DNA of 64,000 nt from Anaerolineales bacterium (lineage in GTDB: Bacteria > Chloroflexota > Anaerolineae > Anaerolineales > UBA11579): contig JANWHN010000086.1 of assembly GCA_025450445.1 (NCBI GenBank), positions 8,770 to 72,769 on the forward strand, in the 5' to 3' direction. This document shows, piece after piece, positions 16,422 to 47,097 of this stretch (its first letter is position 1; every line of letters starts with the position of its first letter). The notes beneath the pieces were generated by a model. It saw nothing but the letters and a program-made list of their open reading frames with translations, was not told the DNA's origin and did not search any database. Both the position numbers and the translations under genes were made by a program.

Positions 16422-16495
16422 GTCCCGCTTTTGACCGACAGAATTACATTTGCTGAATCGGTATAATCGTTCGATAGATAGGAGCATTTGAGTAG

Positions 16496-17017: not shown

Positions 17018-17027
17018 GTCTGCGTTT

Positions 17028-17264
17028 ATGAAAGATCTCATCGAATATATCGCCCGGTCTTTAGTCGATGATGCCTCTCAAGTGCAAGTGACTGAGCGCG
17101 AAAAGGGCGAAAGCAAAGAAATTACCTTGCGCGTGGCTAAAGATGATATGGGGCGCGTGATTGGGCGCAACGGCCGTGTTGCGAACGCGATCCGCACGCT
17201 TACGCAGGTCTCAGCAACCCAAATGGGAGCGCGGGCAAACCTGCAAATCTCGGAACCTGATTGA
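17028..17264 (+). CDS. KH-domain RNA-binding protein (YlqC/UPF0109 family)
   Basis: 78 aa with MKDLIEYIARSLVD...GRVIGRNGRVANAIRTL (GxxG KH motif), in the conserved position between rpsP and rimM. ATG 17028 is preferred over the track start at 16935. Confidence 0.88.
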   Translation: MKDLIEYIARSLVDDASQVQVTEREKGESKEITLRVAKDDMGRVIGRNGRVANAIRTLTQVSATQMGARANLQISEPD

Positions 17265-27960: not shown

Positions 27961-28009
27961 AGCATCCTTCGCTGCAGACAACAACGCGCCCGCTGATAGA
28001 ATCGCAAAT

Positions 28010-28853: not shown

Positions 28854-30650
28854 ATGCAACAAATTCGTAATTTTTGCATCATCGCGCATATCGATCACGG
28901 CAAATCCACGCTCGCCGATCGACTCCTCCAACTAACCGGGACGATCTCCGAACGGGATATGACCGCGCAAGTTCTGGATAGTATGGACCTGGAACGCGAA
29001 AAAGGCGTCACGATCAAATCGTCCGCGGTGCGGATGAACTACAACGCCAAGGATGGCCAAAGCTACGAGCTCAACCTGATCGACACTCCGGGCCACGTTG
29101 ACTTCGGTTACGAAGTCAGCCGCGCTCTGGAAGCTTGCGAGGGGGCGCTTCTGGTTGTCGACGCATCTCAAGGCATCCAGGCTCAAACGCTAGCCAACCT
29201 CTACAGCGCGCTGGATGCTGACCTGGAGATCATTCCGATCATCAATAAGATCGATATGCCCGCCGCAAACCCGGACGCGGTTGCTAAGGAGATCAGCCAA
29301 CTCATCGGTACGCCCGTTGAAGATATCCTGCGAATATCAGCCAAGTCCGGCGAGAACATCGAAGCTGTGCTTGAAGCTGTTGTCGAACGCGTCCCAGCAC
29401 CGAAAGGCGATCCCGCTGCTCCTCTCCGCGCTCTGATTTTCGATTCACATTACGACGCTTACAAGGGCGTCGTGGCTTATGTGCGTGTTATCGACGGGCG
29501 CATCGAGGGTGAGGAGCCCTTGCGCCTCATGATCACCGGCGCTGAATTTAAGCCGATCGAGATCGGCACCTTCACGCCGCGGCTAACCGCAGGAAAGATG
29601 CTCGAGGCGGGCGAGGTGGGTTACGTTGCCACGGGTTTCAAAACCGTAGCCGAGTGCCGCGTCGGCGATACCTTCACCTACAAATCGCGCCCGGCTGCCG
29701 AACCGCTGCCCGGCTATCGTCAGGTCAAACCCATGGTGTTTGCGGGCATCTATCCGGTCGAAGGCGATGATTACCCGGAACTGAAAGAGGCGCTAGAAAA
29801 GTTGCAGCTTAACGACGCCTCGTTGGTTTATGAGCCCGAGATCTCGCAGGCCTTGAACTTCGGCTTCCGCTGCGGCTTTCTGGGCATGTTTCACATGGAA
29901 ATTGTTCAGGAGCGCCTGGAGCGCGAGTACGACTTGGACATTATCGTGACCGCCCCTTCGGTGGCATATGAAGTGGTGCTCAATAGTGGCGAAGTAGTGC
30001 CAGTCGACTCACCCGCCGAGTTGCCAAACGAAGGCGAGACCACCGAGGTGCGTGAACCTTGGATGGATATTGAGATCTTTACCCCCACTGCTTACTATGG
30101 CCCAGTGATGGAACTAGTCACTCATCGCCGGTCGATTTATAAGGGCGAGGAGCATCCCGCTCCTGAGCGGGTCCAGCTTAATTTCGAGATTCCTCTTGCT
30201 GAGATCATTGTGGATTTTTTTGACCAGCTCAAATCCGTCACCCGTGGCTACGCCTCCCTGGATTATCACTTCAAAGAATATCGCGCCGATGAATTGGTGA
30301 AACTCGAGATCCATGTCAACATGGAACCGATCGATGCCTTTACCACAATCGTCCACAAGGATGATGCCTACCGAAAAGGTCAGGCGTTGATTACTAAACT
30401 AAAAGACTTAATCCCTCGCCAGCTCTTCGTGGTTCCAATTCAAGCAGTCTCAGGTGGCCGTGTGATATCGCGCGCCAATGTGAAGGCCATGCGCAAAGAT
30501 GTGCTTGCTAAGTGCTATGGCGGCGATGTCACTCGCAAAAAGAAATTGCTTGAGAAGCAGAAGAAGGGCAAGAAGCGGATGAAGATGGTCGGCAGCGTGG
30601 AGATTCCTCAGGAAGCATTCCTGGCCGTCCTTCGCTTGAGTGATGACTAG
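28854..30650 (+). CDS. lepA: Translation elongation factor 4
   Basis: [22 protein letters not shown]...DTPGHVDF...NKID and the LepA C-terminal domain (...[17 protein letters not shown]). Confidence 0.96.
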
Positions 30651-31662
30651 CGCCAAAGCCACGCCCAATCGGCGCAGCAACAACCTGGTGCGAATGTTGC
30701 CCGGGTTTCTTGTTACTTTCGTTGCTTTAGCAGTTCTTTACTTCTTCATCGATCTGGATACTCTTGCAACAGCCTTTGCCCTACAAGATTATCGTTGGTT
30801 GCCATTGGTCATCCTCGCCTTCTTCGGTACTTTGCTTACGCGCACTCAAGCCTGGCGCACGATCCTAGAGGGGCGAGCGAATTTTAAAGAATCTTTTCTC
30901 GTAATCTCCCAAGCCTATCTATTGAACAATGTGCTGCCATTCCGTCTGGGTGAGCTTGGCCGCGCTTTGCTTCTGAGTGGGCGTGTCAGCTTGAGTTTTT
31001 GGCGTGTTTTTTCCACAGTTGTAGTTGAACGCGTCTTCGATCTCGGTATTGCGGCAGGTTTGCTGCTGGCAACGCTTCCACTCGTGGTTGGAGCCGACTG
31101 GGCGCGTTCGGCAGCGCTCGTTGCCATTGCATTGGTAGTTGCTGGCTTTGCGATTTTGTTCCTAATGGCCAGAAATCCTGAGGGAACCCGCCACCTTATC
31201 GAAAGACTAACAAAACCGAAACCAAAACTACAGCATTGGCTTTCTGACAAACTAGCCTCCTTCTTGGAGGGGTTGTCGACCCTCAGGGATTGGCGACGCT
31301 TTCTTACTGTGACTTTCTGGATGCTGCTAACTTGGTTTTTCAATGTGGCTTGGTATTACCTCCTTTTGCGCAGCTTCATTCCGGTTGCGCCATGGCTATG
31401 GGCATTCTTCTCGATTGCCGTTGCTTCTCTTGGCGTTGCATTGCCATCTTCTCCCGGGTATGTTGGTGTGCTCGAAACAGCCATGGTCGGGTCCCTTAGC
31501 TTGTTTGGGGTTGACCCATCGATTTCGCTTGCCTATGCGTTGGTGGCGCATGTGCTGTACTTCATCCTCACTGGTGCCATTGGCATCTATGGTTTTTGGG
31601 AGCAAGGCCAATCGCTAGGTGAGGTTTATCGGAAATTGCTCAATCGTCCCGAAAGCGCGTAA
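30640..31662 (+). CDS. UPF0104 / lysyl-PG-synthase-TM-like (flippase-like) integral membrane protein
   Basis: About 8 TM helices with ...AWRTILEG...[22 protein letters not shown], characteristic of the family. The start (GTG 30640 or ATG 30643) overlaps the lepA stop. Confidence 0.7.
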
Positions 31663-31671
31663 GGAATTCCT

Positions 31672-32706
31672 ATGGCTAAGAAAGAAAATTATTTGGTCAC
31701 CGGTGGCGCAGGCTTCATTGGCAGCAATTACACCGACCAGTTGTTGGCTCGCGGCGCCAAGGTCACTATCTTCGATAATCTTTCCCGTCGCGGCGCCGAT
31801 CGCAACTTGGCTTGGCTGCGCGAGAAACATGGTGCCGATTCATTCGAGTTGGTCGTAGGGGACGTGCGCCAGGGGGATGCTCTGCTGGACGTGGTTGCGG
31901 ATGCCGATCTGATCGTGCATTTGGCAGGTCAGGTCGCTGTTACCAGCTCAGTTGTCGATCCGCGCAATGATTTCGACATTAATGCGCTCGGAACTTTCAA
32001 CGTGCTTGAAGCGGCTCGTAGATCCGGAAATAAGCCTTTCGTCATCTACTCCTCCACCAACAAGGTTTACGGAGAAACCGCCGAACATAAACTGATCGAG
32101 CAAAAAACGCGTTACCGCTACGCCAAATTGCCGAACGGGCTTCCTGAGACCCAGCAGCTCGACTTCCATTCGCCGTACGGCTGCTCCAAAGGTGCGGCCG
32201 AGCAATATGTGCGGGATTACTCCCGCATTTACGACATCCCCAGCGTGGTCATGCGCCAAAGCTGCATTTACGGCCCGCGCCAGTTCGGGGTCGAGGACCA
32301 AGGCTGGCTGGCCTGGTTTGTGATCGCGGCTGTGCTGGGCAAGCCGATCACGATCTACGGCGACGGCAAACAGGTGCGCGATATGTTGCACGTCCGTGAT
32401 CTGATCGCTGCCTACGATGCCGCCATCTCCAAGCGCAAGAAAGTGGCCGGCCAGATCTTCAACGTCGGCGGCGGGCCAAAGCACACGCTCTCGATCTGGC
32501 GCGAGTGCGGGCCGATGCTGGAAAAATTCCTTGGGCGAAAGATCCCGGTAAGTTGGGACAAGCCGCGCCCAGGCGACCAGCAGGTTTACATCAGCGATAT
32601 TCGCAAAGCCAAGAAAGAGCTTGGCTGGACGCCGAAGATCGCAGTGGAGCAGGGCGCAAAAGAGCTTGTCGATTGGGTGCAAGCCAATCGCAGCTTGTTC
32701 AATTAG
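31672..32706 (+). CDS. NAD-dependent sugar-nucleotide epimerase/dehydratase (CDP-paratose-2-epimerase-like SDR)
   Basis: LVTGGAGFIGSNY...DNLSRRGADRNLAWL...SSTNKVYG...SPYGCSKGAAEQY (GxxGxxG and YxxxK). Confidence 0.85.
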   Translation: MAKKENYLVTGGAGFIGSNYTDQLLARGAKVTIFDNLSRRGADRNLAWLREKHGADSFELVVGDVRQGDALLDVVADADLIVHLAGQVAVTSSVVDPRNDFDINALGTFNVLEAARRSGNKPFVIYSSTNKVYGETAEHKLIEQKTRYRYAKLPNGLPETQQLDFHSPYGCSKGAAEQYVRDYSRIYDIPSVVMRQSCIYGPRQFGVEDQGWLAWFVIAAVLGKPITIYGDGKQVRDMLHVRDLIAAYDAAISKRKKVAGQIFNVGGGPKHTLSIWRECGPMLEKFLGRKIPVSWDKPRPGDQQVYISDIRKAKKELGWTPKIAVEQGAKELVDWVQANRSLFN

Positions 32707-32725
32707 CCTGCATTAAACTGAGCCC

Positions 32726-33889
32726 GTGCGCATTCTCACGGTCCTCACTTATTACCGCCCCCACACCAGCGGATTGACCATATATGCAGAGCGCCTTGCC
32801 AAGGCGCTACTGCGCCGCGGACACGAAGTGACTGTGCTCACCTCGCAATTTGAAGACGGCCTGCCGCTCGAGGAGATGCAAGACGGTTTGCGGATCCGGC
32901 GGGTGCCTGTGGCGTTGCGAATCAGCAAGGGCGTCCTAATGCCGTCATTGGGTCGGACTGCTTCTGAAGAAACGCGCAAACATGATGCACTGCTTCTGCA
33001 TTTGCCCCAATTTGACGCAGCGGGCTTGGCGCTGCGCGGACGATTGCAGAAAAAACCAACTGTCATTATTTATCATTCCGACCTAACGCTTCCTCCAGGT
33101 TTATTTAATCGATTGGTCAATTTTGTAGTCAACACGATGAATGGTTTGGCTGCCCGCATCACGCATCGCATCTCTTCATACACAGAGGACTTCGCCAGCC
33201 ATTCTCCATACCTGCGCCGCTTTCGAGAAAAGGTGCGCGTGATCGCGCCGGCGGTTGAGATTCCTGGGGCGAGTGCGGCTGAAGTCAAAGAATTCACTGC
33301 CCAGCACAATCCCGAGGATCGGCATCCGGTCATTGCCATGGCAACCCGCTTTGCAGCCGAGAAAGGGGTGGAACTTTTGCTTCAAGGGTTGCCAGCAGTG
33401 CTTGAGAAATTTCCCAAGGCGAAAGTCTTGTTCGCCGGCCAGTACGAAAACGTATTAGGAGAAGAATCATATTGGCAGCGTCTTTGGCCGCAGATCGAGA
33501 AATATATTCAGGCGGGACAATGGAAGTTTCTCGGCACCCTCTCTATGCAAGAGATGGCTGCGTTTTATCCAAACATTGACCTGCTCGTGGTCCCAAGCAC
33601 CAACTCTACGGAGACTTTTGGTTTCGTGCAGATCGAAGCGATGATGAATGGCAAACCTGTGGTTGCTTCTGATCTGCCCGGCGTGCGCCAACCGGTGAAA
33701 CTGACCGGGATGGGACGGGTGACGCCAGTGGGCGATGCGGGCGCGCTTGCGCAGAACATGCTGGCAGTGCTCAGCGAGCCGGATAAATATGGCGGCGACC
33801 CGAGCGCGCTGCGCCAGCGATTCAGCCCCGATACCTGCGCTGCCAATCACGAAGCGCTCTTCAACGAAATTGCGGCAGAGTTTAAGTAA
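32726..33889 (+). CDS. GT4-family (GT-B) glycosyltransferase
   Basis: Start MRILTVLTYYRPHTSGL and a C-terminal E..FGFVQIEAMMNGKPVVASD (EX7E-like) motif. The start codon is GTG. Confidence 0.85.
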   Translation: MRILTVLTYYRPHTSGLTIYAERLAKALLRRGHEVTVLTSQFEDGLPLEEMQDGLRIRRVPVALRISKGVLMPSLGRTASEETRKHDALLLHLPQFDAAGLALRGRLQKKPTVIIYHSDLTLPPGLFNRLVNFVVNTMNGLAARITHRISSYTEDFASHSPYLRRFREKVRVIAPAVEIPGASAAEVKEFTAQHNPEDRHPVIAMATRFAAEKGVELLLQGLPAVLEKFPKAKVLFAGQYENVLGEESYWQRLWPQIEKYIQAGQWKFLGTLSMQEMAAFYPNIDLLVVPSTNSTETFGFVQIEAMMNGKPVVASDLPGVRQPVKLTGMGRVTPVGDAGALAQNMLAVLSEPDKYGGDPSALRQRFSPDTCAANHEALFNEIAAEFK

Positions 33890-34698
33890 TGGGTCACCCC
33901 GCTCCGCGAACAGACACAAATCCATATCTTTGGTCGCAGTTGCGCGATCTCCCATACTTCCGCGCACTGTTACGTGCGGTCGAGGCTGACTTTTATCGCC
34001 ATTTCGAGTTGGCTGGGCCGATCCTGGATGTTGGCTGCGGTGACGGGCAATTTGCCTCTGTGGTTTTCAAGCAAGCTATCGATGTGGGCTTCGACCCGTT
34101 TCTGCCTTCACTGCGGGAAGCCAAAACATACGGCTTGTATCGCGGGCTGGCCCAATCGCTTGGCGAAAGGACCCCGTTCCCAGATGCGCATTTTGGCAGC
34201 GCGTTCAGCAACTCGGTGCTGGAGCATATTCCTGGCTTGCAAGCGGTCCTGAACGAAACTGGACGAGTGTTGCAATCAGGCGCCCTTTTCCTGTTCTGTG
34301 TGCCCAATCATCGTTGGCCTGGGAATTTGTCCATCTCCAACTTTCTGAAGAGGATCGGGCTGCAGGGTTTTGCCCGCGCATATGTGCGCTTCTTCACCCG
34401 TATCTCCCGCCATGTGAATATGCTCTCTCCCAAAGAATGGGAGGAGAGACTGAAGACTGCCGGATTTGCCTTGGAAGACCATTGGCATTACTTTCCGCAG
34501 GCTGCTTTGCATGCGCTGGAGTGGGGCCATTATTTTGGCCTGCCAAGCTGGGTGGCCCGCGGCTTGACCCGGCGCTGGGTAATTGCACCGTATCGCTGGA
34601 ACCTTGCGCTTACCGAACGCCTGATCCGCAAACATGCCAGCGGTGGCGCCGCCCCGAACGGTACCTATACGTGGTTCGTTGCCCGAAAATTGAATTAA
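33889..34698 (+). CDS. Class I SAM-dependent methyltransferase
   Basis: ILDVGCGDGQF (motif I) ...FSNSVLEHIP...LQSGALFLFCVPN. The ATG overlaps the GT4 stop (TAATG). Confidence 0.8.
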   Translation: MGHPAPRTDTNPYLWSQLRDLPYFRALLRAVEADFYRHFELAGPILDVGCGDGQFASVVFKQAIDVGFDPFLPSLREAKTYGLYRGLAQSLGERTPFPDAHFGSAFSNSVLEHIPGLQAVLNETGRVLQSGALFLFCVPNHRWPGNLSISNFLKRIGLQGFARAYVRFFTRISRHVNMLSPKEWEERLKTAGFALEDHWHYFPQAALHALEWGHYFGLPSWVARGLTRRWVIAPYRWNLALTERLIRKHASGGAAPNGTYTWFVARKLN

Positions 34699-34851
34699 TC
34701 ATCATCATCACTGCCAGACCCCCCCGTATTCGTTAAAACTTAAATTTCCTCGCTATAACCAGGTTGCCAACACTATTTCTCCTTTCTGCCCAAGTGCCTG
34801 AGATACAATCAGCCATTCGCCCCTCAGGGCGCTTATTTTTGCACAAATCGA

Positions 34852-36972
34852 ATGTCTGAACCCAGCATTCTCGACTATGTCAAGGCGTTCATCGCCCGCC
34901 AGCCCCTGCCTGCCATTCCGGCACTGCCGAAAGGCAAAGCCCGAGCGGTGCGTTCGGCGCCCACGGCTCGGCGAGCTGCAGCCCGGCCAAGTATCTCGAT
35001 AAAGGCTCTTCCGTGGCTGAGCGTCTCAGCCCTCGTTTTTTTTCTGGCCGCACAACTTATGTGGAACGCAGGCCCTGGGGTGCCCTTAACGAATCTGGTG
35101 CTTGGCGGGGCCTTTGCACTGCTGGCTCTAATTGCAACGATCTGGGCGGCAGTTACGAACGAGTGGCGATTGCCGGTGCTGGAAGAAGGAACGGTCGACA
35201 AACACGCCCTTATCTTTAGGCGAATCCCGCTGGCGCTGGGCTTGTTGTTCTTTGGACTTACGCTCCTTTTCTCTGGGAGTAATCGCTTTAATTTCATCAA
35301 CACAACTTTTTGGTTCCTCAGCGTGGTTTTCACGCTTGCCGCATTTTGGCAGACGCGCGAATGGCTGAGCAGCTTGTGGAAGCAGGCCCGCGAGCGGATC
35401 AGCCAGTCGCAATGGACGCTGCCGATCTCGCGCTGGTCGCTATTGCTGATCGCGCTGTTCGTCCTGATCGCCGCCTTCCGCTTTGTCGGGCTAGTGACGA
35501 TGCCACCGGAGATGACTAGCGACCATGCGGAAAAGCTGCTGGACGTTAGCGATGTGATCGGTGGGAAGACATCGATCTTCTTCGAACGCAATTCGGGGCG
35601 CGAGCCGTTTCAGTTCTATTGGACGGCTTGGGTCGGACAGGTTTTTGGCACCGGCGTCACGTTTTTGAGCCTGAAACTTGGCACTGCCCTCTTGGCGTTT
35701 GTCTCTCTCATATATGTGTATTTGCTTGGGAAAGAATTGGGCGGGCGCTGGGTAGGTTTGTTCGCGCTGATCTTTGTGGGCTTCGCCTATTGGGCGAATG
35801 TGCTGGCCCGCACCGGCTTGCGGTTTTCGCTGTATCCAACATTCGCTTCCCCAACTCTTTATTACCTACTAATCGGACTGCGCCGCGGGCAGTTAAATAA
35901 CTTCCTCTTATCGGGATTATTCCTTGGCATCAGCTTGCTGGGCTACACCGCTTCGCGGGTGATGCCGATCGTTGTGGTGGCCGCGGTTGCGATCTTTCTG
36001 TTGCACAAGTCCACGCCTGAACTGCGCAAGCGCGCCTTGATCGGGCTAGCGCTGCTAGCGCTAGTAGCCATGGTTGTCTTTGCGCCGGTGATGCGATTTG
36101 CAATCGACCGGCCCGACCTGTTTGGATTCCGTATGGTTACGCGGGTGTTCGAAAGCGAACGCCCCTATCCGGCCCCTGTCTGGCAGACGTTCCCGATAAA
36201 CGTGATCCGCGCTCTGGGTATGTTTAATTATTCGGGCGGTGAGATCTGGCTGGTAGGTTTAGTGCGCCAGCCGGCGTTCGATTGGATCTCGGCTGCGCTG
36301 TTTTTGCTCGGCGTGCCGCTTTTGATATTGCGTTATGCGCGCACCCGGCAATGGCAAGACTTGTTCCTGCTGATCGCGCTGCCATTGCTGATGTTGCCTT
36401 CGACATTATCACTGGCGTTCCCGGAGGAAAACCCGGCCATGAACCGCGCCAGCGGCGCGTGGATCGCGGGTTTCCTGATCTGCGCGATCGCGTTGGATAC
36501 GGTGCTGCATTCGGTGCGCCGAAAAATTAACGGTCAGCTCGGATTAAGAATTGTTCAAGTGAGTGGGGTTGTGGTTTTGGCGTTCGTTGCCTTGATCAAC
36601 TATGCTCGCTTTGACGAATATATTTCGGCCTATGACTTGTATTCCTGGAACACGTCAGAACTCGGGGCTGTGATAGCGGATTACGCCGAAACATTTGGCA
36701 CGCTGGATAGCGCCTGGGTCTTGGCCTATCCGCACTGGGTGGATACGCGGCTGGTGGGGATGAACGCAGGCAACCCAACCCGCGATTATGCGATCTGGCC
36801 AGATCAACTGAGCAATACGCTGAGCACGCCCGCGCCGAAATTATTTTTGCTCAAACCCGAAGACAGCGCCGGGCTCGAAACTTTGCAGCAGCTCTATCCA
36901 AGTGGTTTGACGAGCATGCACCAAAGCCGTGTGCCCACCAAAGAATTCGTGGTCTTTTTCGTCCCACAGTAA
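34852..36972 (+). CDS. GT-C-fold-like polytopic membrane protein (ArnT/PMT-like)
   Basis: 706 aa with more than 12 hydrophobic helices. The loop PPEMTSDHAEKLLDVSD follows an early TM helix, as in PMT_2/ArnT-type enzymes. This is an assignment by eye only. Confidence 0.6.
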   Translation: MSEPSILDYVKAFIARQPLPAIPALPKGKARAVRSAPTARRAAARPSISIKALPWLSVSALVFFLAAQLMWNAGPGVPLTNLVLGGAFALLALIATIWAAVTNEWRLPVLEEGTVDKHALIFRRIPLALGLLFFGLTLLFSGSNRFNFINTTFWFLSVVFTLAAFWQTREWLSSLWKQARERISQSQWTLPISRWSLLLIALFVLIAAFRFVGLVTMPPEMTSDHAEKLLDVSDVIGGKTSIFFERNSGREPFQFYWTAWVGQVFGTGVTFLSLKLGTALLAFVSLIYVYLLGKELGGRWVGLFALIFVGFAYWANVLARTGLRFSLYPTFASPTLYYLLIGLRRGQLNNFLLSGLFLGISLLGYTASRVMPIVVVAAVAIFLLHKSTPELRKRALIGLALLALVAMVVFAPVMRFAIDRPDLFGFRMVTRVFESERPYPAPVWQTFPINVIRALGMFNYSGGEIWLVGLVRQPAFDWISAALFLLGVPLLILRYARTRQWQDLFLLIALPLLMLPSTLSLAFPEENPAMNRASGAWIAGFLICAIALDTVLHSVRRKINGQLGLRIVQVSGVVVLAFVALINYARFDEYISAYDLYSWNTSELGAVIADYAETFGTLDSAWVLAYPHWVDTRLVGMNAGNPTRDYAIWPDQLSNTLSTPAPKLFLLKPEDSAGLETLQQLYPSGLTSMHQSRVPTKEFVVFFVPQ

Positions 36973-36973
36973 C

Positions 36974-39900: not shown

Positions 39901-42214
39901 GCTACTCTCGTATTTCGCGTGGATGGGCGGATCGCTGGGGCTGACTTTCAGCCGCGGCTGGCTGGCAATATTTGTAGTGGTGCTGATTGCGCTTAGCGCG
40001 GCTGCAGGTTGGGCGCAAAGGGAGCAATTAAAAGAAGAGTGGCGCACGCGCAAGAGTCAGTTCCTGCGCACGGAGCTGCTGTTCCTTGGATTCTTCTTAG
40101 TAATGTTGCTGGTGCGTATCGGTAACCCGGACCTGTGGCACCCGGCTAAGGGCGGAGAGAAGCCAATGGACTTCTCGTATTTCAATGCGGTGCTCAAGAG
40201 CGAAACATTCCCGCCTTACGATCCCTGGTTTGCCGGCGGCTACATCAACTATTACTACTGGGGCTTCGTGCTTGTCGGTTCGCTGGTCAAGCTGCTCGGT
40301 ATTGTGCCAGCGGTAGCATACAACCTGATCTTGCCGAGCCTGTTCGCCATGCTGGCCCTTGGCGGCTACAGCGTGGCGTGGAATTTGTGGACTGCATGGC
40401 AGGCTCGTGATGGCCGCGGGTCGGGCATTTCTCCTGAATTTGTCGGGCTGATCGCCGCGTTGGCGATAGTGCTGTTCGGCAACCTGGGCAGCATCCAGAT
40501 GTTGGTACAGGGGTTCACAAGGCTCGGATCGATGGGCGAGGTGGTGCCTGAATCGGGTTTGATCGATCGAATTATGTGGTTGGGTCGCGGCTTCGTTTTA
40601 TATCTTTCGGGCACGCAGCTGCCCTTCGGATTAGGTGACTGGTATTGGAATCCGACACGGATTATTCCCGCGCCGAATGAATCTTCGCCGATCACCGAAT
40701 TTCCGCTTTTCACATTTGCTTACGCCGACCTGCACGCGCACATGATCGCGCTGCCAGTAACCGTGCTTACGCTGGGTTGGTCGCTATCGGCGATATTGAG
40801 CAAGGCGTGGCAGGGTGCGGTCCGCTGGGGCCGCGTGCCGGTGCAAGTGATCGCCAGCTTCCTGCTGGCGGCGATCGCAATCGGCAGCCTCCGCCCGATC
40901 AACACCTGGGACCTGCCAACGTATCTGGTGATCGCAATCCTGGCGGCGATGTATGCCATTGTGCGCTATGGGCCGAGGCGCAAAGACGCAGATGGCAAAC
41001 TGCACCCAAGATGGGAGTTAGCGATCGGGGCAGCAGTGGCGTTGGGCGCGCTGAGCATTCTCGCCTTCCAGCCGTTCGCCAACTGGTACCGTCAGGGTTA
41101 CGCCAGTATTGAGATGTGGAAAGGCACCCATACGCCAGTCGACGCGTACCTGATCCATTGGACGATCTTCCTGTTCTTCGTTGTCGCTTGGCTTGTTTGG
41201 GAAACGCGCCAATGGATGGCGAGCACGCCCCTCTCGTCGCTCCGCAAGCTGCAACCGCACGCGGTCTATATCTATGCCGGCTTGTTCTTGCTGTTGCTCG
41301 GGATTGTTGTCCTCACGGTTATTGACGTTTATGTGGCCTGGCTAGTGGTGCCGCTTATTTTGTGGGTCGGCCTTTTGTTCTTGCGACCTGGGCAGGATGA
41401 AGCCAAACGCCTTGTGCTGTTTATGGTTGGCACGGCATTGTTCTTGACCTTGTTTGTAGAAGTGATCGTGCTCAAAGGTGACATCTCGCGCATGAACACG
41501 GTCTTCAAGTTCTACATGCAGGCTTGGGTGCTGCTGGCGATCACGGCCGCGTTCGCGATGGGTTGGGCACTGGACGCGCGTCGCGGCTGGCTGCCGACAT
41601 GGCGCGGCGTGTGGCAATTCGTGGCGACACTGCTGCTGGCGTTCGCCGGGCTGTTCCTGCTTCTGGGCGTGACCGCCAAGATGCGCGATCGCATGGCGGC
41701 CGAGTCACCGCACACCTTGGATGGACTGGCGTACATGGAGCATTCTCTTTATTACGACAAAGACAAAGAATTGCAGTTGTGGCAGGATTACGAAGCCATC
41801 CGCTGGCTGCAGGAGAACGTGCAAGGCTCGCCGGTTATCGTAGAAGCAAACATACCGGAATATCGCTGGGGCTCGCGCATGACGATCAACACGGGGTTAC
41901 CGGGCGTGGTTGGCTGGAATTTCCACCAGCGCCAGCAGCGCGAATTCGTGTCGGGCAACGACATCTGGGCCCGCATCACCGGCGAATTCTCGGTGGAAGC
42001 TTTTTACAACACCGCTGACTTGAATTTTGCGCAGGAATTTTTGCAGCTCTACAACATCGAATACATCATTGTCGGGCAACTGGAGCAAGCCTATTATTTG
42101 CCCGAAGGTCTTGCGAAATTTGAAGCGCAAGATGGTGTTTTGTGGACCGAAGTGTTTCGAGTTGAAGACACCGTGATCTACCAAGTCAACAACACCGTGC
42201 TGGCTGAGAACTGA
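36974..42214 (+). CDS. 1746-aa fusion membrane protein: N-terminal GT-C-like module + large extracytoplasmic region + C-terminal Chlor_Arch_YYY/DUF2298 module
   Basis: N-terminus has LRLTGISWDDQQHLHPDERF (a DE motif after TM1). The centre is about 560 hydrophilic aa. The C-terminus has GGEKPMDFSYFNAVLKSETFPPYDPWFAGGYINYYYWGF (YYY codons at 40250-40258). ATG 36974 is 1 nt after the upstream stop. Confidence 0.75.
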   Translation: MPTKPRISIRPWFYDVGFALVLVLAAALRLTGISWDDQQHLHPDERFLTQVESALRPANSLGEYFDTPNSPLNPGNRGFTFFVYGTFPIFLVRYIAEGLQQTGYDQVHLIGRAMSAVADLGAITLVYLIGNRLFDKRVGLLAAVFSAFTVMQIQQSHFWTVDNFANLFTLLAIYFAVRVASGKSSTHNIWNFVGFAVGFGLCLASKLPSPFLLALLAATLPAGVLIRLLAQPSEERQASFVQGTGYSVLAGFLSLLVFRVFQPYAFLPAGAEDSSGLVNGILARIGFGINPAFIDTMRQLLGQVSGLADWPPSMQWARRPDWFGIENIVEWGLGWPLAIACFGGFIWAGWRILRGDWNKPAAILWFYSGAFLAMQSLGFNPTMRYFLPVYPGLAVFGGWGVFALWDLGARRTKKTPRWQGLARPAAAMLGTVAVVGAALWSLAFVQVYRQDVSRIAAARWIYQNIPGPITLSYADEGEVVHQPIPVSYDFIITPDTPLFTQFSSRSDGELSEVTFKYVLAPLQMTLTNVADETILLARENEVFDLATIQPGESKQVIFNIPATALVDPAATYRLQLVLPSGDGQLTVQSAELRNSQSAEMTPQPLATESLLAMGETLSLEFTLNSGAFYDQLVVTLRAENQLELDPVRLNLRINTSPEMDNPVLNETISITPQTSKGAIGSGLTVPLSSPIDVSEGQEVYVQVALTSPGAVKLMGSALANETSWDDGLPLRIDGYDGFGGIYQGDLNYEMYWDEDPTKLERFTNILNNTEYIFITSNRQWGSLPRLPERFPLVVAYYRALLGCPPERTIEWCYTEAQVGDFGGELGFELVQVFESGPRLGDWRINDQGAEEAFTVYDHPKVLIFHKTVDYDPARVGEILGAVDLTQVIRVTPGEAGSRVLPNLQLSPLQAEQLRAGGTWSELFDTSNWINSSPWVSAVVWYVALFLLGVAVYPLVRFTLPGLKDGGYPFARLVGLLLLSYFAWMGGSLGLTFSRGWLAIFVVVLIALSAAAGWAQREQLKEEWRTRKSQFLRTELLFLGFFLVMLLVRIGNPDLWHPAKGGEKPMDFSYFNAVLKSETFPPYDPWFAGGYINYYYWGFVLVGSLVKLLGIVPAVAYNLILPSLFAMLALGGYSVAWNLWTAWQARDGRGSGISPEFVGLIAALAIVLFGNLGSIQMLVQGFTRLGSMGEVVPESGLIDRIMWLGRGFVLYLSGTQLPFGLGDWYWNPTRIIPAPNESSPITEFPLFTFAYADLHAHMIALPVTVLTLGWSLSAILSKAWQGAVRWGRVPVQVIASFLLAAIAIGSLRPINTWDLPTYLVIAILAAMYAIVRYGPRRKDADGKLHPRWELAIGAAVALGALSILAFQPFANWYRQGYASIEMWKGTHTPVDAYLIHWTIFLFFVVAWLVWETRQWMASTPLSSLRKLQPHAVYIYAGLFLLLLGIVVLTVIDVYVAWLVVPLILWVGLLFLRPGQDEAKRLVLFMVGTALFLTLFVEVIVLKGDISRMNTVFKFYMQAWVLLAITAAFAMGWALDARRGWLPTWRGVWQFVATLLLAFAGLFLLLGVTAKMRDRMAAESPHTLDGLAYMEHSLYYDKDKELQLWQDYEAIRWLQENVQGSPVIVEANIPEYRWGSRMTINTGLPGVVGWNFHQRQQREFVSGNDIWARITGEFSVEAFYNTADLNFAQEFLQLYNIEYIIVGQLEQAYYLPEGLAKFEAQDGVLWTEVFRVEDTVIYQVNNTVLAEN

Positions 42215-44658
42215 TGCCGCAGATCCTTAGTGCCATCATTTGGTATCTGCTGCTGGCTGGCTTGGGCTGGCTGGTCATTCCGATCGCCTATCGCTTCTTG
42301 CACGCGCTGCCTGATCGCGGCTTAGCCTTCACGCGGACGCTTGGCTTGCTCCTATGGGGCTTCACGTTCTGGATTTTGTCTAGTTACGGATTATTGCAAA
42401 ATAATCTCGGCGGGTTGCGGACCGCCGCGGCGCTACTGGGCGCGGTCAGCTATTGGGCCTGGCGTCAGATCCCGCGTGGCGAACTGGGTAAATGGTTGCG
42501 TGCCCACCGCGGGCTGATCATCGGCATGGAAGTCCTGTTCCTGGTGGCGTTCCTGTTCATGACCTTTATCCGTGCTTCGCGCCCGGATATCAATCACACT
42601 GAGCAGCCCATGGAGTTGGCCTTTATCAACGCCATCCTGCGCTCGCCAACGATGCCCCCGCACGATCCCTGGCTATCTGGCTTCTCGATCTCGTATTACT
42701 ACTTCGGATATTTAATGGTCGCCATGCTGGCCAAACTGACCGGGGTGATTGGGTCGGTGGCGTTCAATCTTGGATTCATCTCGATCTTCTCGATGGCCGC
42801 CGTGGCTGCTTATGGGCTGGCTGCCAACCTGCTCACCGTCTATCGCCCCCAAGCGATCAAGGCTTTCCGCTGGCTGGCGCTTCTGGCGCCGCTTTCGGTG
42901 CTGATCCTCGGCAATTTTGAAGGCTTGCTAGAGATCGCCCATGCTCGCCATGTTTTATGGCTGACCGATGCCACGAGTGCGCGCACGTCTGATTTTTGGG
43001 CGTGGTTGGATGTAAAGGACCTGATATACGCACCCGTGGACGATCCGCAATTTCAGCCGCGCTTATTTGGCACCGGCGCATGGTGGTGGTGGCGCGCCTC
43101 GCGGGTGATCAACGACCGCACCTTCCTTGGCGATGAGCAGGAGCTGATCGACGAGTTCCCCGCATTCTCGTTCGTGCTCGGCGACCTGCATCCGCATGTG
43201 CTCTCGATGCCGTTTGTCATGCTGGCCATGGGAACGGCGCTCAACGTTTATCTCGGTGCCGGCGAGCGCAAGAAGGGGCTCTTGCGTGATTCTTTGCATA
43301 TTGAGCCGGAGACATTGGGGTTTACCGCAGTTGTTGTTGGCGCGCTGGGCTTCCTGAATATTTGGGATTTCCCGATCTATGTGGGTGTCGTTTCCTTGGC
43401 GTACGGATTACGCCGCGTCCAGACAGAAGGCAGGTGGGTGTACTTGTTCGACTCTTTGCTGTTTGGACTGGTCACTGGCTTGTTGGGGATTGCCCTCTAT
43501 TTGCCCTTCTATATCGGCTTCACTTCGCAGGCAGCCGGCATTCTTCCCAATTTGCTTAATCCAAGCCGCGGCGCACATCTATGGATAGTGTTTGGTCCGG
43601 CTTTTGTTCTCTTTTTCGTCTTTCTTATTGTTTCCTGGTTCCGGACTCGTGAAATCGGCCGATTGCTCAAATATGTTCTCCTCGGTTTCGGTGTCGTCTT
43701 TGCTTTTGGGCTGATCTCGTTTGGTCTGACTTGGCTGTATATGAATGTCATCCCCGCCAGTCAACAGGGCGCACTGCTCGCCTCGCTCGGCGCAGCAGAT
43801 GCGAGCCAACTGATAAATGAATCGCTTGCCAGGCGCATGGCCGGACCCGGCGGATGGATCACGCTGAGCATTTTGCTTGGCTTGCTCCTGGGCTTATTCT
43901 TCCAGCCTGCTGACCGTCGCCAAACCAACAAGGCCGTCACTGCGGAACGCCAAGCTGGTTCTTTCATGATCCTGCTAGCGGTTGTGGCTACGCTGCTGGT
44001 CATCGTCCCTGAATTCATTTATTTGCGCGATCAGTTTGGGACGCGCATGAACACGGTGTTCAAGTTCTATTTCCAGGCCTGGCAAATGTGGGCGATCGCG
44101 GGTGTCTTTATCATCGGCGTGCTGCTCAGCGAACTACGCGGAATCGGGCGAGCGTTGTTTGTTGCGTTGGTCGCTTTGTTGGTTTTCGTGGGCCTCATTT
44201 ACCCCGCCTACGCTTTCGCCGATGTTTCGCGGCGCACGCCCGAAGAAGCATTTACATTGGATGGGGCGCGCTGGCTCTCAGCCGACACAGTTGCCGCCAT
44301 GGCTTGGCTGCGCCAAGCGCCAGTAGCGCCGTTGGCAGAAGCGATTGGCGGAAGCTACAACGCCAGTTTTGCGCGCTTTGCGGCGCATAGTGGCCAGCAG
44401 GCGATCATGGGTTGGCCGGGCCACGAAGGCCAGTGGCGCGGCGGCAATGTGGATTTTGCGCGCATCTCAGATATCGAAGCCCTGTACTCAACAGCTGATT
44501 GGGATGCTGCGCAAACGATTATCGACCGATATGGCATTCGTTATGTGGTAATCAGTGAAGTCGAACGCAATACTTATGCCGTCGATGAAATTAAGTTTCA
44601 GCAAAATCTGGATCTCGTTTTTCAAAACGCCGCAGTCACAATTTACCAAGTTCCGTAA
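42214..44658 (+). CDS. Chlor_Arch_YYY / DUF2298 family integral membrane protein
   Basis: TEQPMELAFINAILRSPTMPPHDPWLSGFSISYYYFGY (YYY codons at 42694-42702), paralogous to the C-terminal module of the preceding gene, including the shared ...RMNTVFKFY.QAW... segment. The ATG overlaps the upstream stop (TGATG). Confidence 0.8.
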   Translation: MPQILSAIIWYLLLAGLGWLVIPIAYRFLHALPDRGLAFTRTLGLLLWGFTFWILSSYGLLQNNLGGLRTAAALLGAVSYWAWRQIPRGELGKWLRAHRGLIIGMEVLFLVAFLFMTFIRASRPDINHTEQPMELAFINAILRSPTMPPHDPWLSGFSISYYYFGYLMVAMLAKLTGVIGSVAFNLGFISIFSMAAVAAYGLAANLLTVYRPQAIKAFRWLALLAPLSVLILGNFEGLLEIAHARHVLWLTDATSARTSDFWAWLDVKDLIYAPVDDPQFQPRLFGTGAWWWWRASRVINDRTFLGDEQELIDEFPAFSFVLGDLHPHVLSMPFVMLAMGTALNVYLGAGERKKGLLRDSLHIEPETLGFTAVVVGALGFLNIWDFPIYVGVVSLAYGLRRVQTEGRWVYLFDSLLFGLVTGLLGIALYLPFYIGFTSQAAGILPNLLNPSRGAHLWIVFGPAFVLFFVFLIVSWFRTREIGRLLKYVLLGFGVVFAFGLISFGLTWLYMNVIPASQQGALLASLGAADASQLINESLARRMAGPGGWITLSILLGLLLGLFFQPADRRQTNKAVTAERQAGSFMILLAVVATLLVIVPEFIYLRDQFGTRMNTVFKFYFQAWQMWAIAGVFIIGVLLSELRGIGRALFVALVALLVFVGLIYPAYAFADVSRRTPEEAFTLDGARWLSADTVAAMAWLRQAPVAPLAEAIGGSYNASFARFAAHSGQQAIMGWPGHEGQWRGGNVDFARISDIEALYSTADWDAAQTIIDRYGIRYVVISEVERNTYAVDEIKFQQNLDLVFQNAAVTIYQVP

Positions 44659-44699
44659 CACAAGGCGAAAAAAGTCGCTGCACTATAATTACTGCGATC

Positions 44700-46388
44700 A
44701 TGGCTTCGCGTCCTTCATTTAATCTTGAGCATCTGCTTTACGCCGCAATTTTTTTGTTGGCGTTGAGCTTGCGTTTTATTGGTCTCGGGTCGATCCCGCT
44801 CACCGAAAACGAAGCTGCGGTGGCTTTGCCAGCTCACCAGCTTGCTTCCGGTAATCCTGCCGATCTCGGTTCCGAGCCGGGCTATGTCGTACTGACCCAA
44901 GCTCTCTTTGCGATTTTGCCCAGCAGCGATTTTTTGGCCCGCTTGTGGCCTGCCCTGTTCGGGACCGCGCTTGTGCTGCTTCCTTACTTCTGGCGCGAGG
45001 AGCTTGGTCGCAAGCCTGCAGTTTTGCTCTCGCTTGCGCTTGCCCTCGACCCAGGCATGGTCGCAGTTTCACATCTAGCTTCGGGACGGATGTTGGCGTT
45101 TAGCGCGGGCCTGTTTGCGCTGACTGCCTGGCGGCATAGGCAGCCGGTTGCTGCAGCAATCTTGGGCGCCCTAGCATTGCTGTCTGCGCCCATTCTCTAC
45201 GTTGGAGTTTTTGCTTGCGGTCTCACGTTCTATTTAAGCCGATCTTCCAAAGCTGGTAAAGAGAAATCTGATTTGCGATCCGCTTTTTTGGCCGGCGGGG
45301 CAACTCTCCTGTTTCTCGGCACCGCTTTCTTTAGCGCGCCTCAAGGGTTAGCCGGCTTAGGCAATGTCTTAGCTGGCTTTGTGCAGGGCTGGCTGCAGCC
45401 TTCGGATGTGAGTATGCTGACCGTCCTGTTTGCCCTGGTTGGTTACGCCTTACCCGCGGTGCTTTTCGGACTCATCGGCGCAGTGCGTGCGTGGACCCAA
45501 GACCTGCGCTTTGGCAAAAGCCTAAGCTTGTTTGCTCTTTTTGCTCTGCTGCTGATCCTTATTTACCCCGGGCGCCAAGTTGCGGACCTGCTGTGGGTCC
45601 TGCTGCCCCTGTGGGCCTTGGCGGCGCAAGAGATCAGTCGTTACTTGTACATTCCAAAAGAGGAGCGCAGCGCGGCATTTGGAACCATGGCGCTTAATCT
45701 GTTGCTCGGTATTTTCCTTTACTTAATGCTGGCAAAGCTGGCGTACCCAAATCTGGTGCCTGAAGTTTTCTCGCTGACGCTTGCTTACGCGGGCGCGGTT
45801 CTACTGATTGCGTTGATTGCCACGACCCTGATCGCATTCGGCTGGTCGCGGAACGCGGCGGGTAATGGGCTGGTGTGGGCGCTGCTCATCCTTTTTTCGC
45901 TGTCACTTCTCGGCGCCAGCTCCCGCTTTGCGCGAATCACATCGACCGCGGCCAACGAGCTTTGGGCGCCGGGACCAGCCGCAGGGCAGGGCAGTTTGCT
46001 CTCCGCCAATTTGAATTTGCTGTCATCTCGTGTCGAAGGTGGAACGTTAAAAGCAGTCCCAGTCGATCTACGCACGGAAAGCGCAGCTTTGCAATGGGCT
46101 GTGCGCGATTTACCGGAGAATTCCAGCGAGACTACTGGGTCGCCCGATTTGTTTATCACGTTGGCTGACGCTCAGCCCGAAGAGGCGGCCACATATCGCG
46201 GACAAACATTCGCCCTGAATATTCAACGCGCCTGGGTAGATTTCCCACCTAACATATTTAGCTGGCTGCTGTATCGGCAAGCCCCGACCGTCAAGCAAGA
46301 AGCTGTGTTGTGGGCGAGGGCGGAATTTTTCCCGGATGGTGTGCTTTTGTTGCAGACCGAACCGGATTCGGGCGAGACGATCGAATAA
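44700..46388 (+). CDS. Polytopic membrane protein, degenerate GT-C-like (possible partner of the YYY proteins)
   Basis: 562 aa with N-terminal LRFIGLGSIPLTENEAAVALPAHQL after TM1 and more than 10 helices. It has no recognisable soluble domain. Confidence 0.55.
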   Translation: MASRPSFNLEHLLYAAIFLLALSLRFIGLGSIPLTENEAAVALPAHQLASGNPADLGSEPGYVVLTQALFAILPSSDFLARLWPALFGTALVLLPYFWREELGRKPAVLLSLALALDPGMVAVSHLASGRMLAFSAGLFALTAWRHRQPVAAAILGALALLSAPILYVGVFACGLTFYLSRSSKAGKEKSDLRSAFLAGGATLLFLGTAFFSAPQGLAGLGNVLAGFVQGWLQPSDVSMLTVLFALVGYALPAVLFGLIGAVRAWTQDLRFGKSLSLFALFALLLILIYPGRQVADLLWVLLPLWALAAQEISRYLYIPKEERSAAFGTMALNLLLGIFLYLMLAKLAYPNLVPEVFSLTLAYAGAVLLIALIATTLIAFGWSRNAAGNGLVWALLILFSLSLLGASSRFARITSTAANELWAPGPAAGQGSLLSANLNLLSSRVEGGTLKAVPVDLRTESAALQWAVRDLPENSSETTGSPDLFITLADAQPEEAATYRGQTFALNIQRAWVDFPPNIFSWLLYRQAPTVKQEAVLWARAEFFPDGVLLLQTEPDSGETIE

Positions 46389-46389
46389 C

Positions 46390-47097
46390 ATGTCAAAGCC
46401 ATTGACCATCGCCATCGATGGGCCGGTCGCGTCTGGTAAATCCACGCTGGCAAAGTCCCTGGCGGAACACCTCGGCTACTTGTACTTCGACACTGGCGCC
46501 ATGTATCGCGCCGTGACGCTCGCCGCCTTGCGCCGCGGTGTGCCCGTCGATGACGAGGGTGCCCTCGAAGCGCTTGCGCGTGAAATTCATATTGACCTCA
46601 AGCCGGCTACACAAAATGATGGCCGCCTCTATGACGTCTACATCGATGGAGAAGATTGCACTTGGGCGATCCGTGAGCCCGAAGTCGTGAACCATGTCTC
46701 GCAGGTGTCCGCCTTTGCTGGTGTGCGGCGGGTTCTCACGGCCCAGCAGCGCAGGATCGGCGAGCGCGGTGGGGTGGTGATGGCGGGACGCGATATCGGC
46801 ACCGTCGTCTTGCCAGAAGCCGACCTCAAGATCTATCTCGACGCAACTGAGCACGAGCGCGCAAATCGGCGCCATCTGGAACTACAGGAGCGCGGGGAGC
46901 AGCAAACTTACGAACAGGTTCTCGATTCATTGCGCCAGCGTGACTTGATCGATGCCAGCCGCGCTGTAGCGCCGCTGCGCCCGGCCGAGGATGCGCACAT
47001 TTTGAAGTCCGACGGGATGCAAAGCGCGGATGTGCTCGCACAGACCTTACTGCTTGTTAGTGAGCGCCAATCACAACTAAATGGTAAACATGGGTAG
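46390..47097 (+). CDS. cmk: Cytidylate kinase
   Basis: IAIDGPVASGKSTLAK...YFDTGAMYRA...GRDIGTVV. ATG 46390 is 1 nt after the upstream stop. The track start at 46336 is over-extended. Confidence 0.93.
   Translation: MSKPLTIAIDGPVASGKSTLAKSLAEHLGYLYFDTGAMYRAVTLAALRRGVPVDDEGALEALAREIHIDLKPATQNDGRLYDVYIDGEDCTWAIREPEVVNHVSQVSAFAGVRRVLTAQQRRIGERGGVVMAGRDIGTVVLPEADLKIYLDATEHERANRRHLELQERGEQQTYEQVLDSLRQRDLIDASRAVAPLRPAEDAHILKSDGMQSADVLAQTLLLVSERQSQLNGKHG

Follow-up and report, generated by a model that had tools for sequence, protein, structure and literature searches.

DUF2298 (YYY) and PMT_2-like membrane proteins of Anaerolineae in a candidate two-stage envelope-glycoconjugate assembly locus

INTRODUCTION

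In mycobacteria and corynebacteria, the assembly of phosphatidylinositol mannosides (PIM), lipomannan (LM), lipoarabinomannan (LAM) and arabinogalactan involves the GT4 glycosyltransferases PimA/PimB', the GT-C (glycosyltransferase fold C) enzymes PimE, MptA/B, EmbA/B/C and AftA-D, and a UbiA-type decaprenyl-phosphate phosphoribosyltransferase. The classical three-component layout (ArnC/ArnEF/ArnT; GtrB/GtrA/Gtr-type GT-C) consists of a GT2 glycosyltransferase, a small flippase and a GT-C enzyme, with neither a GT4 nor an epimerase. In the present study we analysed a gene cluster, located between lepA and cmk, that resembles both kinds of system in part. It lies in a 64000-nucleotide stretch (the window; positions 8770-72769 of contig JANWHN010000086.1, here C86) of an Anaerolineales bacterium of the phylum Chloroflexota (GenBank assembly GCA_025450445.1), whose incomplete metagenome-assembled genome is 1.64 Mb in size and 68% complete. 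The cluster encodes a flippase-like protein, a short-chain dehydrogenase/reductase (SDR), a GT4 and a methyltransferase, followed by four large membrane proteins of 706, 1746 (the giant), 814 and 562 amino acid residues. Our analysis suggests that it probably represents a core, vertically inherited, two-stage envelope-glycoconjugate assembly locus of Anaerolineae.

The resemblance to the actinobacterial PIM-LM-LAM and arabinogalactan pathways lies in a cytoplasmic GT4 nearest to PimA and in several polytopic GT-C enzymes presumed to act outside; AftA, EmbB/C and PimE were among the structural matches, and a nearby UbiA-family gene passes the cut-off for decaprenyl-phosphate phosphoribosyltransferases. 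The cluster differs from these pathways in its phylum, in the lack of a DprE1-type epimerase, in its MprF-type flippase-like protein and in the weakness of the similarity to PimA (57 bits). Furthermore, we know of no DUF2298 member in the actinobacterial pathways, whereas two of the five GT-C modules encoded here belong to that family. With the three-component systems the cluster would share a lipid-linked sugar that, as we propose here, is made inside, flipped and used outside by GT-C enzymes; the genome contains an ArnC/AglJ-like GT2, and ArnT was the top structural match of the 562-residue protein. However, the GT2 is located outside the cluster, the flippase-like protein belongs to PF03706 and not to GtrA/ArnE, there are five GT-C modules instead of one, and the GT4, the epimerase and the methyltransferase are extra. 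Judged by these comparisons, its nearest counterparts are the PIM/LM/LAM and arabinogalactan pathways of actinobacteria together with the three-component ArnT-type systems, and it is a member of neither.

Soils, sediments and wastewater systems contain Chloroflexota in abundance, yet little of their cell-envelope chemistry has, to our knowledge, been described. The public sequencing runs that contain the window sequence are soil and rhizosphere metagenomes. In every relative examined the locus has stayed together with housekeeping genes, and it is among the largest concentrations of GT-C modules in these small genomes (~2.3 Mb), which makes it a prime candidate for producing a core surface glycan. 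For DUF2298, a family with members in genetically tractable archaea, it offers a function that is concrete and can be tested, and it ties this family to that of Agl23, for which the choice between a flippase and a transferase role bears on how lipid-linked sugars cross membranes.

RESULTS AND DISCUSSION

Four membrane proteins with five GT-C modules

A first-pass annotation of this DNA, made from the letters and a list of open reading frames (ORFs), had described all four large membrane proteins as GT-C-like. Pfam matches and profile comparison bore this out, as did two confident structure models, for which GT-C enzymes were the best PDB matches; the assignment of the 706-residue protein and of the N-terminal half of the giant is based on PMT_2 and hhalign. 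The four proteins comprise five GT-C modules: three are PMT_2/ArnT-like (the 706-residue protein, the N-terminal half of the giant and the 562-residue protein), and two belong to DUF2298/TIGR03662 (Chlor_Arch_YYY, hereafter YYY).

PF13231 (PMT_2) matched the 706-residue protein with 40.0 bits and the N-terminal half of the giant with 36.9 bits, against a cut-off of 26.1. The 706-residue protein has an N-terminal extension of ~190 residues and carries the sequence P-x-E-M-x-x-D after its first core helix, in which P218 is invariant and E220 and D224 are at least 90% conserved among 21 orthologues. In the giant, an HPDE motif (residues 42-45) stands right behind the first transmembrane segment, and H42, P43, D44 and E45 are each at least 95% conserved in 35 full-length orthologues; the HPDERF sequence reported near 37100 was read directly as residues 42-47 (~37097-37114). 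The 562-residue protein had no direct Pfam match. Its family is homologous to that of the 706-residue protein in the GT-C core (hhalign, 96.6% probability), and E38 in its first loop is invariant. Thus all three PMT_2-like modules keep acidic residues just past the first core helix, as catalytic GT-Cs do.

Structure models of the 562- and 814-residue proteins were built with AlphaFold2 from alignments of homologues in related loci. The model of the 562-residue protein had a mean predicted local distance difference test score (pLDDT) of 90.6 and matched ArnT in Foldseek with an E value of 5.5e-8 (TM-score 0.54-0.58). It also matched ALG9, ALG12, STT3, EmbC, Pmt4 and PimE, with a probability of 1.0 for ArnT, ALG9/12, STT3, EmbC and Pmt4. 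Sequence searches of the PDB with all four membrane proteins detected no chain, the phmmer search with the YYY protein included.

Between its two GT-C modules, the giant has a region (residues 446-936) with no predicted transmembrane segment, which consists of a lineage-variable insert (~455-700) and a conserved core. The core contains the motifs NETSWDDGLP, SSNRQWGSLPRLPERFPL and AEEAFTVYDHPKV, and E721, W724, D725, Y856, D857 and H858 are its conserved residues. No match to this middle region was found in Pfam or NCBIfam.

The YYY modules

Both YYY modules are full members of PF10060/TIGR03662 and show no difference from these families. The C-terminal half of the giant scored 522.3 bits with TIGR03662 and 414.3 bits with PF10060, and the 814-residue protein scored 454.0 and 359.1 bits respectively, all far above the cut-offs of 300.25 and 27.8. 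The YYYxG motif was read in each of them at the position given by the first-pass annotation, as INYYYWG in the giant (40250-40258) and as ISYYYFG in the 814-residue protein (42694-42702). The traits ascribed to TIGR03662 by the first-pass annotation, namely the YYYxG motif, no assigned function, and occurrence in Chloroflexota and Archaea as well as in Firmicutes, also hold, and a Firmicute copy was found on a plasmid (see below).

Among 45 homologues, 40 positions of the 814-residue protein are invariant. These include E130 (in TE-x-PME), D151 (in PP-x-DPW), Y161/Y162/Y163/G165, R297 after a WWWW run, D324/H326/H328 (DLHPH), N382/D385, E600, D606, R611 and K617. In the C-terminal module of 35 giants, Y1093-Y1095 and G1097 are at least 95% conserved. 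Because this module keeps most of the invariant polar residues of its 814-residue paralogue, the equivalents of D385 and D606 being conserved in less than 95%, neither YYY paralogue looks like a dead copy.

The model of the 814-residue protein had a pLDDT of 92.4 and a predicted TM-score (pTM) of 0.94. Foldseek returned four PDB matches at E <= 0.001, all of them GT-C enzymes (DPY19 three times and AftA), with E values of 3e-5 for DPY19 and 3e-4 for AftA and a probability of 1.0; PglB, ALG3 and EmbB matched more weakly. The C-terminal globular domain (residues ~672-814) matched the C-terminal domain of AglB (3vu0 and 3vgp; probability 1.0, TM-score 0.5 on the target) and could hold the acceptor. 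Membership of DUF2298/YYY in the GT-C group is upheld by this predicted structure. A GT-C membrane domain followed by a C-terminal globular domain is also the arrangement of STT3/AglB/PglB. Unlike these enzymes, the YYY proteins gave no significant match to STT3 models or to PDB sequences, and their motifs (TE-x-PME, PP-x-DPW, YYYxG, WWWWR and DLHPH) are entirely different. E130 and D151 sit in the loop between helices 99-122 and 163-176, whose sidedness is a prediction from helix counting.

A literature search for DUF2298, TIGR03662, PF10060 and 'YYY domain' found no functional study, and homologues carry only the labels 'DUF2298' or 'YYY domain-containing protein' in databases. The locus is uncharacterised, though its domains are already catalogued; what is added here for DUF2298 is a predicted GT-C fold, an AglB-like C-terminal domain, an invariant residue set and conserved partners.

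Conservation of the cluster

TIGR03662 was present in all 41 relatives searched, which represent 19 genera and 17 families of the order, and in them it nearly always takes the form of a fusion of ~1700 residues followed by a protein of ~815 residues. Of 91 Chloroflexota genomes drawn evenly from the phylum, 64 carried the family, mostly in at least two copies, and the genomes without it were mainly small ones. GC content is even throughout the region (0.52-0.58), and the cluster therefore looks native.

Gene order was counted in 57 related loci, the denominators being the informative cases. A gene similar to that of the 562-residue protein lies directly downstream of YYY in 49/54 loci, and a second YYY module lies upstream in 45/53. 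Also found upstream were a module like the N-terminal half of the giant (36/49), a gene like that of the 706-residue protein (26/43), the GT4 (27/43) and the methyltransferase (25/43), the last two occurring together ahead of the GT-C block in 25/43 loci. At the borders, cmk follows the cluster in 25/52 loci, and lepA is directly ahead of it in L054 and L074. The full order flippase-like-SDR-GT4-methyltransferase-706-giant-YYY is kept at 35-40% identity in several families. Gene order, whose lack in relatives had been named beforehand as an argument against the first-pass reading, is conserved across Anaerolineae far beyond chance.

The deepest conserved core is YYY with its 562-residue-type partner, which are adjacent also in Dehalococcoidia (L088 and L089); flippase-like homologues lie near the YYY genes of this class too (L088, L089 and L091). 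The PMT_2-YYY fusion and the constant adjacency of YYY and the 562-residue-type gene are suggestive of modules working jointly, in a single assembly line or complex. In other Chloroflexota we observed single frames of 2500-2770 residues containing two complete YYY modules in tandem (for instance G104:C94, G063:C124, G050:C132 and G086:C20), often followed by a third YYY gene.

In public data, a profile of the family matched ~10,400 cluster representatives (clustering at 50% identity). The Firmicute copy is a DUF2298 gene at 70272-72527 of Pseudobutyrivibrio xylanivorans plasmid pNP95 (NZ_CP043029.1), whose annotated neighbours are a GT2, a glucosyltransferase-domain protein, an O-antigen ligase family protein, a DegT aminotransferase and a sugar epimerase/dehydratase. 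This neighbourhood fits a surface-polysaccharide role in another phylum. One haloarchaeal copy, on a Halarchaeum plasmid and straddling the origin of the record, had no glycosylation genes as neighbours.

Relationship to the TIGR03663/Agl23 family

The first-pass annotation had linked the HPDERF motif to a PMT-like partner family, TIGR03663, and regarded the machinery as uncharacterised. For TIGR03663, both points need correction. No protein of the cluster reached the TIGR03663 cut-off of 126.25 bits (52.5 bits for the 562-residue protein, 21.4 bits for the N-terminal half of the giant and no match for the 706-residue protein), and by these scores the 562-residue protein and the N-terminal module of the giant are distant, sub-threshold relatives of TIGR03663/Agl23. 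The genuine TIGR03663 member of the genome is a protein of 1156 residues (contig C74, 1309-4779, - strand; 229 bits), in which a PMT_2 membrane domain is fused to an NHL-repeat beta-propeller. Each of the 21 relatives searched has this protein as well, and in relative G027 its gene (13849-17253) immediately follows the YYY cluster, which supports a functional link between the two families. Among 14 control genomes, TIGR03662 was above its cut-off only in Haloferax and Methanosarcina, and TIGR03663 was above its own in the same two archaea.

As to function, the TIGR03663-family protein Agl23 of Haloarcula hispanica has been reported as a putative hexose-P-dolichol flippase; the purified protein moves the lipid-linked oligosaccharide M5GN2-PP-Dol across liposome membranes and rescues yeast rft1-delta (PMC11182771). 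The modules of the cluster resemble this 'flippase activity-associated protein' as members of a PMT_2-like, GT-C-type family that co-occurs with TIGR03662, and differ from it in being sub-threshold and in keeping the GT-C-type acidic motifs. A transport-like function, which had been named beforehand as an argument against glycosyltransfer, is thus reported, but only within the partner family TIGR03663. Because Agl23 is reported to translocate, some of the modules may move rather than transfer lipid-linked sugars.

Cytoplasmic-side enzymes, flippase-like protein and donor supply

The flippase-like protein matched PF03706 (LPG_synthase_TM) with 153 bits and TIGR00374 with 94.9 bits (cut-off 43.2). 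These matches put it in the MprF flippase-domain family, as a candidate translocase of a lipid-linked intermediate. The SDR had the CDP-tyvelose 2-epimerase entries 9rl0 (E 1.5e-95) and 1orr (E 1.5e-89) as its best PDB matches in phmmer, the next-best ones, GalE and RmlB, being at 1e-41 or weaker; its scores were under the RmlB and GalE equivalog cut-offs. Since it is far nearer to CDP-tyvelose 2-epimerase than to any GalE or RmlB, it is a probable NDP (nucleoside diphosphate)-hexose 2-epimerase. The GT4 contains Glycos_transf_1 (92 bits) and Glyco_transf_4 domains. Its closest solved relatives are PimA/PimB', the match to PimA (4n9w/2gej, E 1e-14) covering residues 2-355 and being full-length but weak (57 bits), and it is a candidate cytoplasmic-face enzyme that glycosylates a lipid acceptor. 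The methyltransferase belongs to class I and is generic: neither a PDB relative at E <= 0.001 nor a close characterised one was found. PDB sequence searches with this protein and with the flippase-like protein gave nothing useful.

Donors for the GT-C modules may come from outside the cluster. A GT2 of 227 residues (contig C86, 4430-5113), ~26 kb upstream, is the top Glycos_transf_2 match of the genome; its best family similarities, all sub-threshold, are to AglJ, PpgS, ArnC, PgfS and a haloarchaeal Dol-P-hexose transferase, making it a candidate donor synthase. The UbiA-type gene that diverges from the cluster scored 245 bits with NF008977 (cut-off 234) and 229 bits with NF008978 (cut-off 207). 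It is single-copy, is present in 39/41 relatives, and lies 12-18 kb from YYY genes in five other families and far from them in several genomes of the same genus. It is a possible supplier of a polyprenyl-phospho-pentose donor, and its link to the cluster is no more than suggestive. A search of 25 relatives for a DprE1-type ALO domain (PF04030) found none above the cut-off, the Corynebacterium control being positive, and we rejected decaprenyl-phospho-arabinose (arabinofuranose) as the donor because these relatives lack a DprE1-type epimerase. A phosphoribosyl or ribosyl donor is possible.

A two-stage model and its alternatives

We infer the chemistry, step order, donors, acceptor and product of the pathway from the fold assignments and the conservation described above, as follows. 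At the cytoplasmic face, judging by family membership, the CDP-tyvelose-2-epimerase-like SDR would supply an NDP-hexose epimer, the PimA-like GT4 would place the epimerised sugar on a membrane lipid acceptor, and the S-adenosylmethionine (SAM)-dependent methyltransferase may methylate the sugar or the lipid. What the MprF-type flippase-like protein would then bring to the outer leaflet is either the lipid-linked intermediate or a sugar donor linked to polyprenyl phosphate. In the second stage, at the outer face, the five GT-C modules of the four membrane proteins would extend or transfer the glycan, using polyprenyl-phosphate-linked sugars made elsewhere; the candidate enzymes for these donors are the 227-residue GT2 and the UbiA-type enzyme, 2.5 kb upstream. 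A lipoglycan, a wall polysaccharide and a glycoprotein glycan are all conceivable as the product. The proposal of the first-pass annotation that a lipid-linked glycan is flipped and then transferred outside fits the gene content; its product, methylation target and mechanism stay conditional.

A number of observations weigh against this two-stage reading. The cytoplasmic genes are set apart from the GT-C block by a gap with a terminator-like hairpin, and in ~40% of the more distant loci they are not beside it. No polyprenyl-phosphate sugar synthase (GT2) was found between lepA and cmk in Pfam/NCBIfam scans. Against solved GT-Cs, the YYY model reaches global TM-scores of only 0.3-0.5, and because profile comparison of YYY with the PMT_2-like modules (the families of the 562- and 706-residue proteins) gave no homology signal, it is the predicted structure that places YYY among the GT-Cs. 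The invariant YYY residues are predicted to lie mostly in extracytoplasmic loops by helix counting and a positive-inside argument, the helices being counted back from a C-terminal domain taken as outside, as in oligosaccharyltransferases. The GT-C fold occurs also in non-transferases, and PIG-U was among the matches of the 562-residue model. Finally, among relatives of the PMT-like partners Agl23 alone has been characterised, and it is reported to be a flippase and not a transferase; the literature search found no biochemical or genetic datum for any DUF2298 protein.

What the GT-C modules act on can be read in more than one way. YYY, perhaps with its PMT_2-like partners, might glycosylate surface or S-layer proteins (O-, C- or N-linked) instead of contributing to a polysaccharide that is free or anchored to lipid. 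In favour of this, protein glycosyltransferases (DPY19, a C-mannosyltransferase, and PglB) are the best structural matches of YYY, the C-terminal domain of YYY is similar to the globular domain with which AglB binds its acceptor, PMT_2 is a protein O-mannosyltransferase-type family, and TIGR03662 and TIGR03663 both exceed their cut-offs in two archaea with glycosylated S-layer proteins, Haloferax and Methanosarcina. However, AftA, ArnT, ALG9/12 and Emb, which use lipid or glycan acceptors, match equally well or better; the PimA-like GT4 and the flippase-like gene indicate that a glycolipid serves as primer; the cluster encodes no candidate acceptor protein; and there is no STT3/oligosaccharyltransferase sequence signature, TIGR04154 giving 17.5-19.7 bits against a cut-off of 450 and matching the N-terminal half of the giant only. 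We regard protein glycosylation as unlikely. It seems very improbable that the modules merely add single sugars to membrane lipids or a wall polymer in an ArnT-like manner, tuning surface charge or resistance without making a polymer, although ArnT is the top structural match of the 562-residue protein and PF03706 (Lysylphosphatidylglycerol synthase TM region), the family of the flippase-like protein, is that of the MprF flippase domain. Five GT-C modules, two of them with large extracytoplasmic domains, exceed the needs of a single decoration step, they are universally kept alongside housekeeping genes, and a GT4 and an epimerase are foreign to the classical three-component layout.

The flippase activity of Agl23, seen with M5GN2-PP-Dol and in the rescue of rft1-delta (PMC11182771), together with the distant relationship of the 562-residue protein to TIGR03663 (52.5 bits), raises the question of whether one or more GT-C-fold modules, chiefly this Agl23-like protein, are scramblases, flippases or chaperones for polyprenyl-phosphate-linked sugars and not transferases. 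This appears quite improbable, as the protein is below the TIGR03663 cut-off and the true member is a different gene, its ArnT/ALG9-like fold and invariant first-loop glutamate are those of catalytic GT-Cs, and a dedicated flippase-like protein is already encoded by the cluster. A further reading divides the cluster into two separate units, lepA-flippase-SDR-GT4-methyltransferase and the four GT-C genes, which would have unrelated products and be neighbours through the housekeeping synteny of lepA...cmk. The 153-bp gap with its terminator-like hairpin recurs as a gap in relatives, the GT4 and the methyltransferase are absent upstream of the GT-C block in 16-18/43 loci, and lepA directly precedes the giant gene in L054. 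Such a division is nevertheless distinctly unlikely in our view: the order GT4-methyltransferase-706-giant-YYY is kept down to 35-40% protein identity in several families (Pelolinea, Flexilinea, Promineifilaceae, and loci L027-L032, L053, L062, L071, L074, L081 and L086), and flippase-like genes adjoin YYY in Dehalococcoidia too (L088, L089 and L091).

Going further than the two-stage model, DUF2298 YYY might be an unrecognised catalytic GT-C family of Chloroflexota, some Firmicutes and Archaea, oligosaccharyltransferase-like or polymerase/ligase-like, with an active-site signature of its own (TE-x-PME, PP-x-DPW-YYYxG and DLHPH) and an AglB-like acceptor domain, and forming an obligate unit with a PMT_2/Agl23-type partner, fused or adjacent. 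We put this forward as a speculation whose truth is doubtful at present. If true, the haloarchaeal YYY could be the transferase so far missing, which would use the dolichol-phosphate hexose that Agl23 handles, and the Chloroflexota YYY would build a core envelope polymer of a poorly understood monoderm phylum.

Gene layout and transcription

The ORF list and direct reading of the junctions showed nine co-directional genes on the + strand at the coordinates of the first-pass annotation (Table 1).

Table 1 Features of the cluster and its borders (window coordinates)
Feature	Position	Strand	Remarks
UbiA-family decaprenyl-phosphate phosphoribosyltransferase-like gene	27085-28128	-	Divergent from cluster
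lepA (elongation factor 4)	28854-30650	+	TIGR01393, 949 bits; housekeeping; marks conserved upstream border
Flippase-like membrane protein	30643-31662 (GTG 30640, ATG 30643)	+	PF03706/TIGR00374
SDR sugar-nucleotide enzyme	31672-32706	+	Epimerase/GDP_Man_Dehyd
GT4 (GT-B fold) glycosyltransferase	32726-33889	+	Glycos_transf_1 and Glyco_transf_4
SAM-dependent methyltransferase, class I	33889-34698	+	Methyltransf_23/11/25
Intergenic gap, 153 bp	34699-34851	+	Only sizeable gap; hairpin inside
706-residue PMT_2-type GT-C protein	34852-36972	+	PF13231
Giant, 1746 residues from ATG	36974-42214	+	GTG at 36929 would give 1761 residues
Giant N-module, residues ~1-455	36974-38335	+	PMT_2-type GT-C, HPDE motif
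Giant middle region, residues ~455-935	38336-39778	+	Non-membrane, without known family
Giant C-module	39779-42214	+	DUF2298/Chlor_Arch_YYY GT-C module
814-residue DUF2298/Chlor_Arch_YYY protein	42214-44658	+	TIGR03662, 454 bits
562-residue ArnT/ALG9-like GT-C protein	44700-46388	+	Sub-threshold TIGR03663; AlphaFold2 model
cmk (cytidylate kinase)	46390-47097	+	TIGR00017, 229 bits; housekeeping; marks conserved downstream border

Each overlapping or minimal junction that had been claimed was read in the sequence. The 3' end of lepA overlaps the start of the flippase-like gene (GTGATGACTAG), the GT4 stop and methyltransferase start overlap in TAATG (33887-33891), and the giant and the 814-residue gene overlap in TGATG (42212-42216). 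A single base separates the 706-residue gene from the giant (TAA-C-ATG, 36970-36976) and the 562-residue gene from cmk (TAA-C-ATG, 46386-46392). The view of the cluster as one translationally coupled operon thus stood for most junctions; the coupling is not seamless, as the 153-bp gap with its hairpin and a 41-bp gap between the 814- and 562-residue genes (44659-44699) break the block. The larger gap contains a GC-rich, terminator-like hairpin, CGCCCCTCAGGGCG (34818-34831), followed by the T-run CTTATTTTTG, and a gap of 90-400 bp recurs ahead of the 706-residue gene in relatives. The gap is possibly a terminator, an attenuator or an internal promoter region. An Rfam scan of the gap gave no match, and counts of consensus promoters and terminator-like sites over the whole region were not above shuffled expectation. 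Either one operon or two transcription units is possible.

The sole RNA signal consisted of three exact contigs of 185-250 nt at 41306-41995, inside the giant gene, in a soil run labelled RNA-Seq. This is the single putative soil metatranscriptome run with the region, with carry-over of DNA a possibility, and three short contigs within one gene are too little for defining transcription units.

Other genes in the window

Several other genes in the window were observed. A mannose-1-phosphate guanylyltransferase-like gene (NTP_transferase with a ManC beta-helix; 19055-20146, + strand) lies 10 kb upstream of the cluster and is a possible source of GDP-mannose. Beside the UbiA-type gene, a mevalonate kinase (TIGR00549, 277 bits) adjoins an archaeal-type isopentenyl phosphate kinase (NF040647, 187 bits) at 25348-27080 (- strand), a pair that represents an alternative mevalonate route in a bacterium. 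Topoisomerase I (20181-22514, + strand) has an N-terminal DUF5679 (56 bits) ahead of its Toprim domain. In a protein of 1189 residues (6414-9983, - strand), an HD_5 domain of the HD-GYP type comes after five GAF domains; with the adjacent PAS-GGDEF gene (1866-3341) it looks like cyclic-di-GMP signalling hardware.

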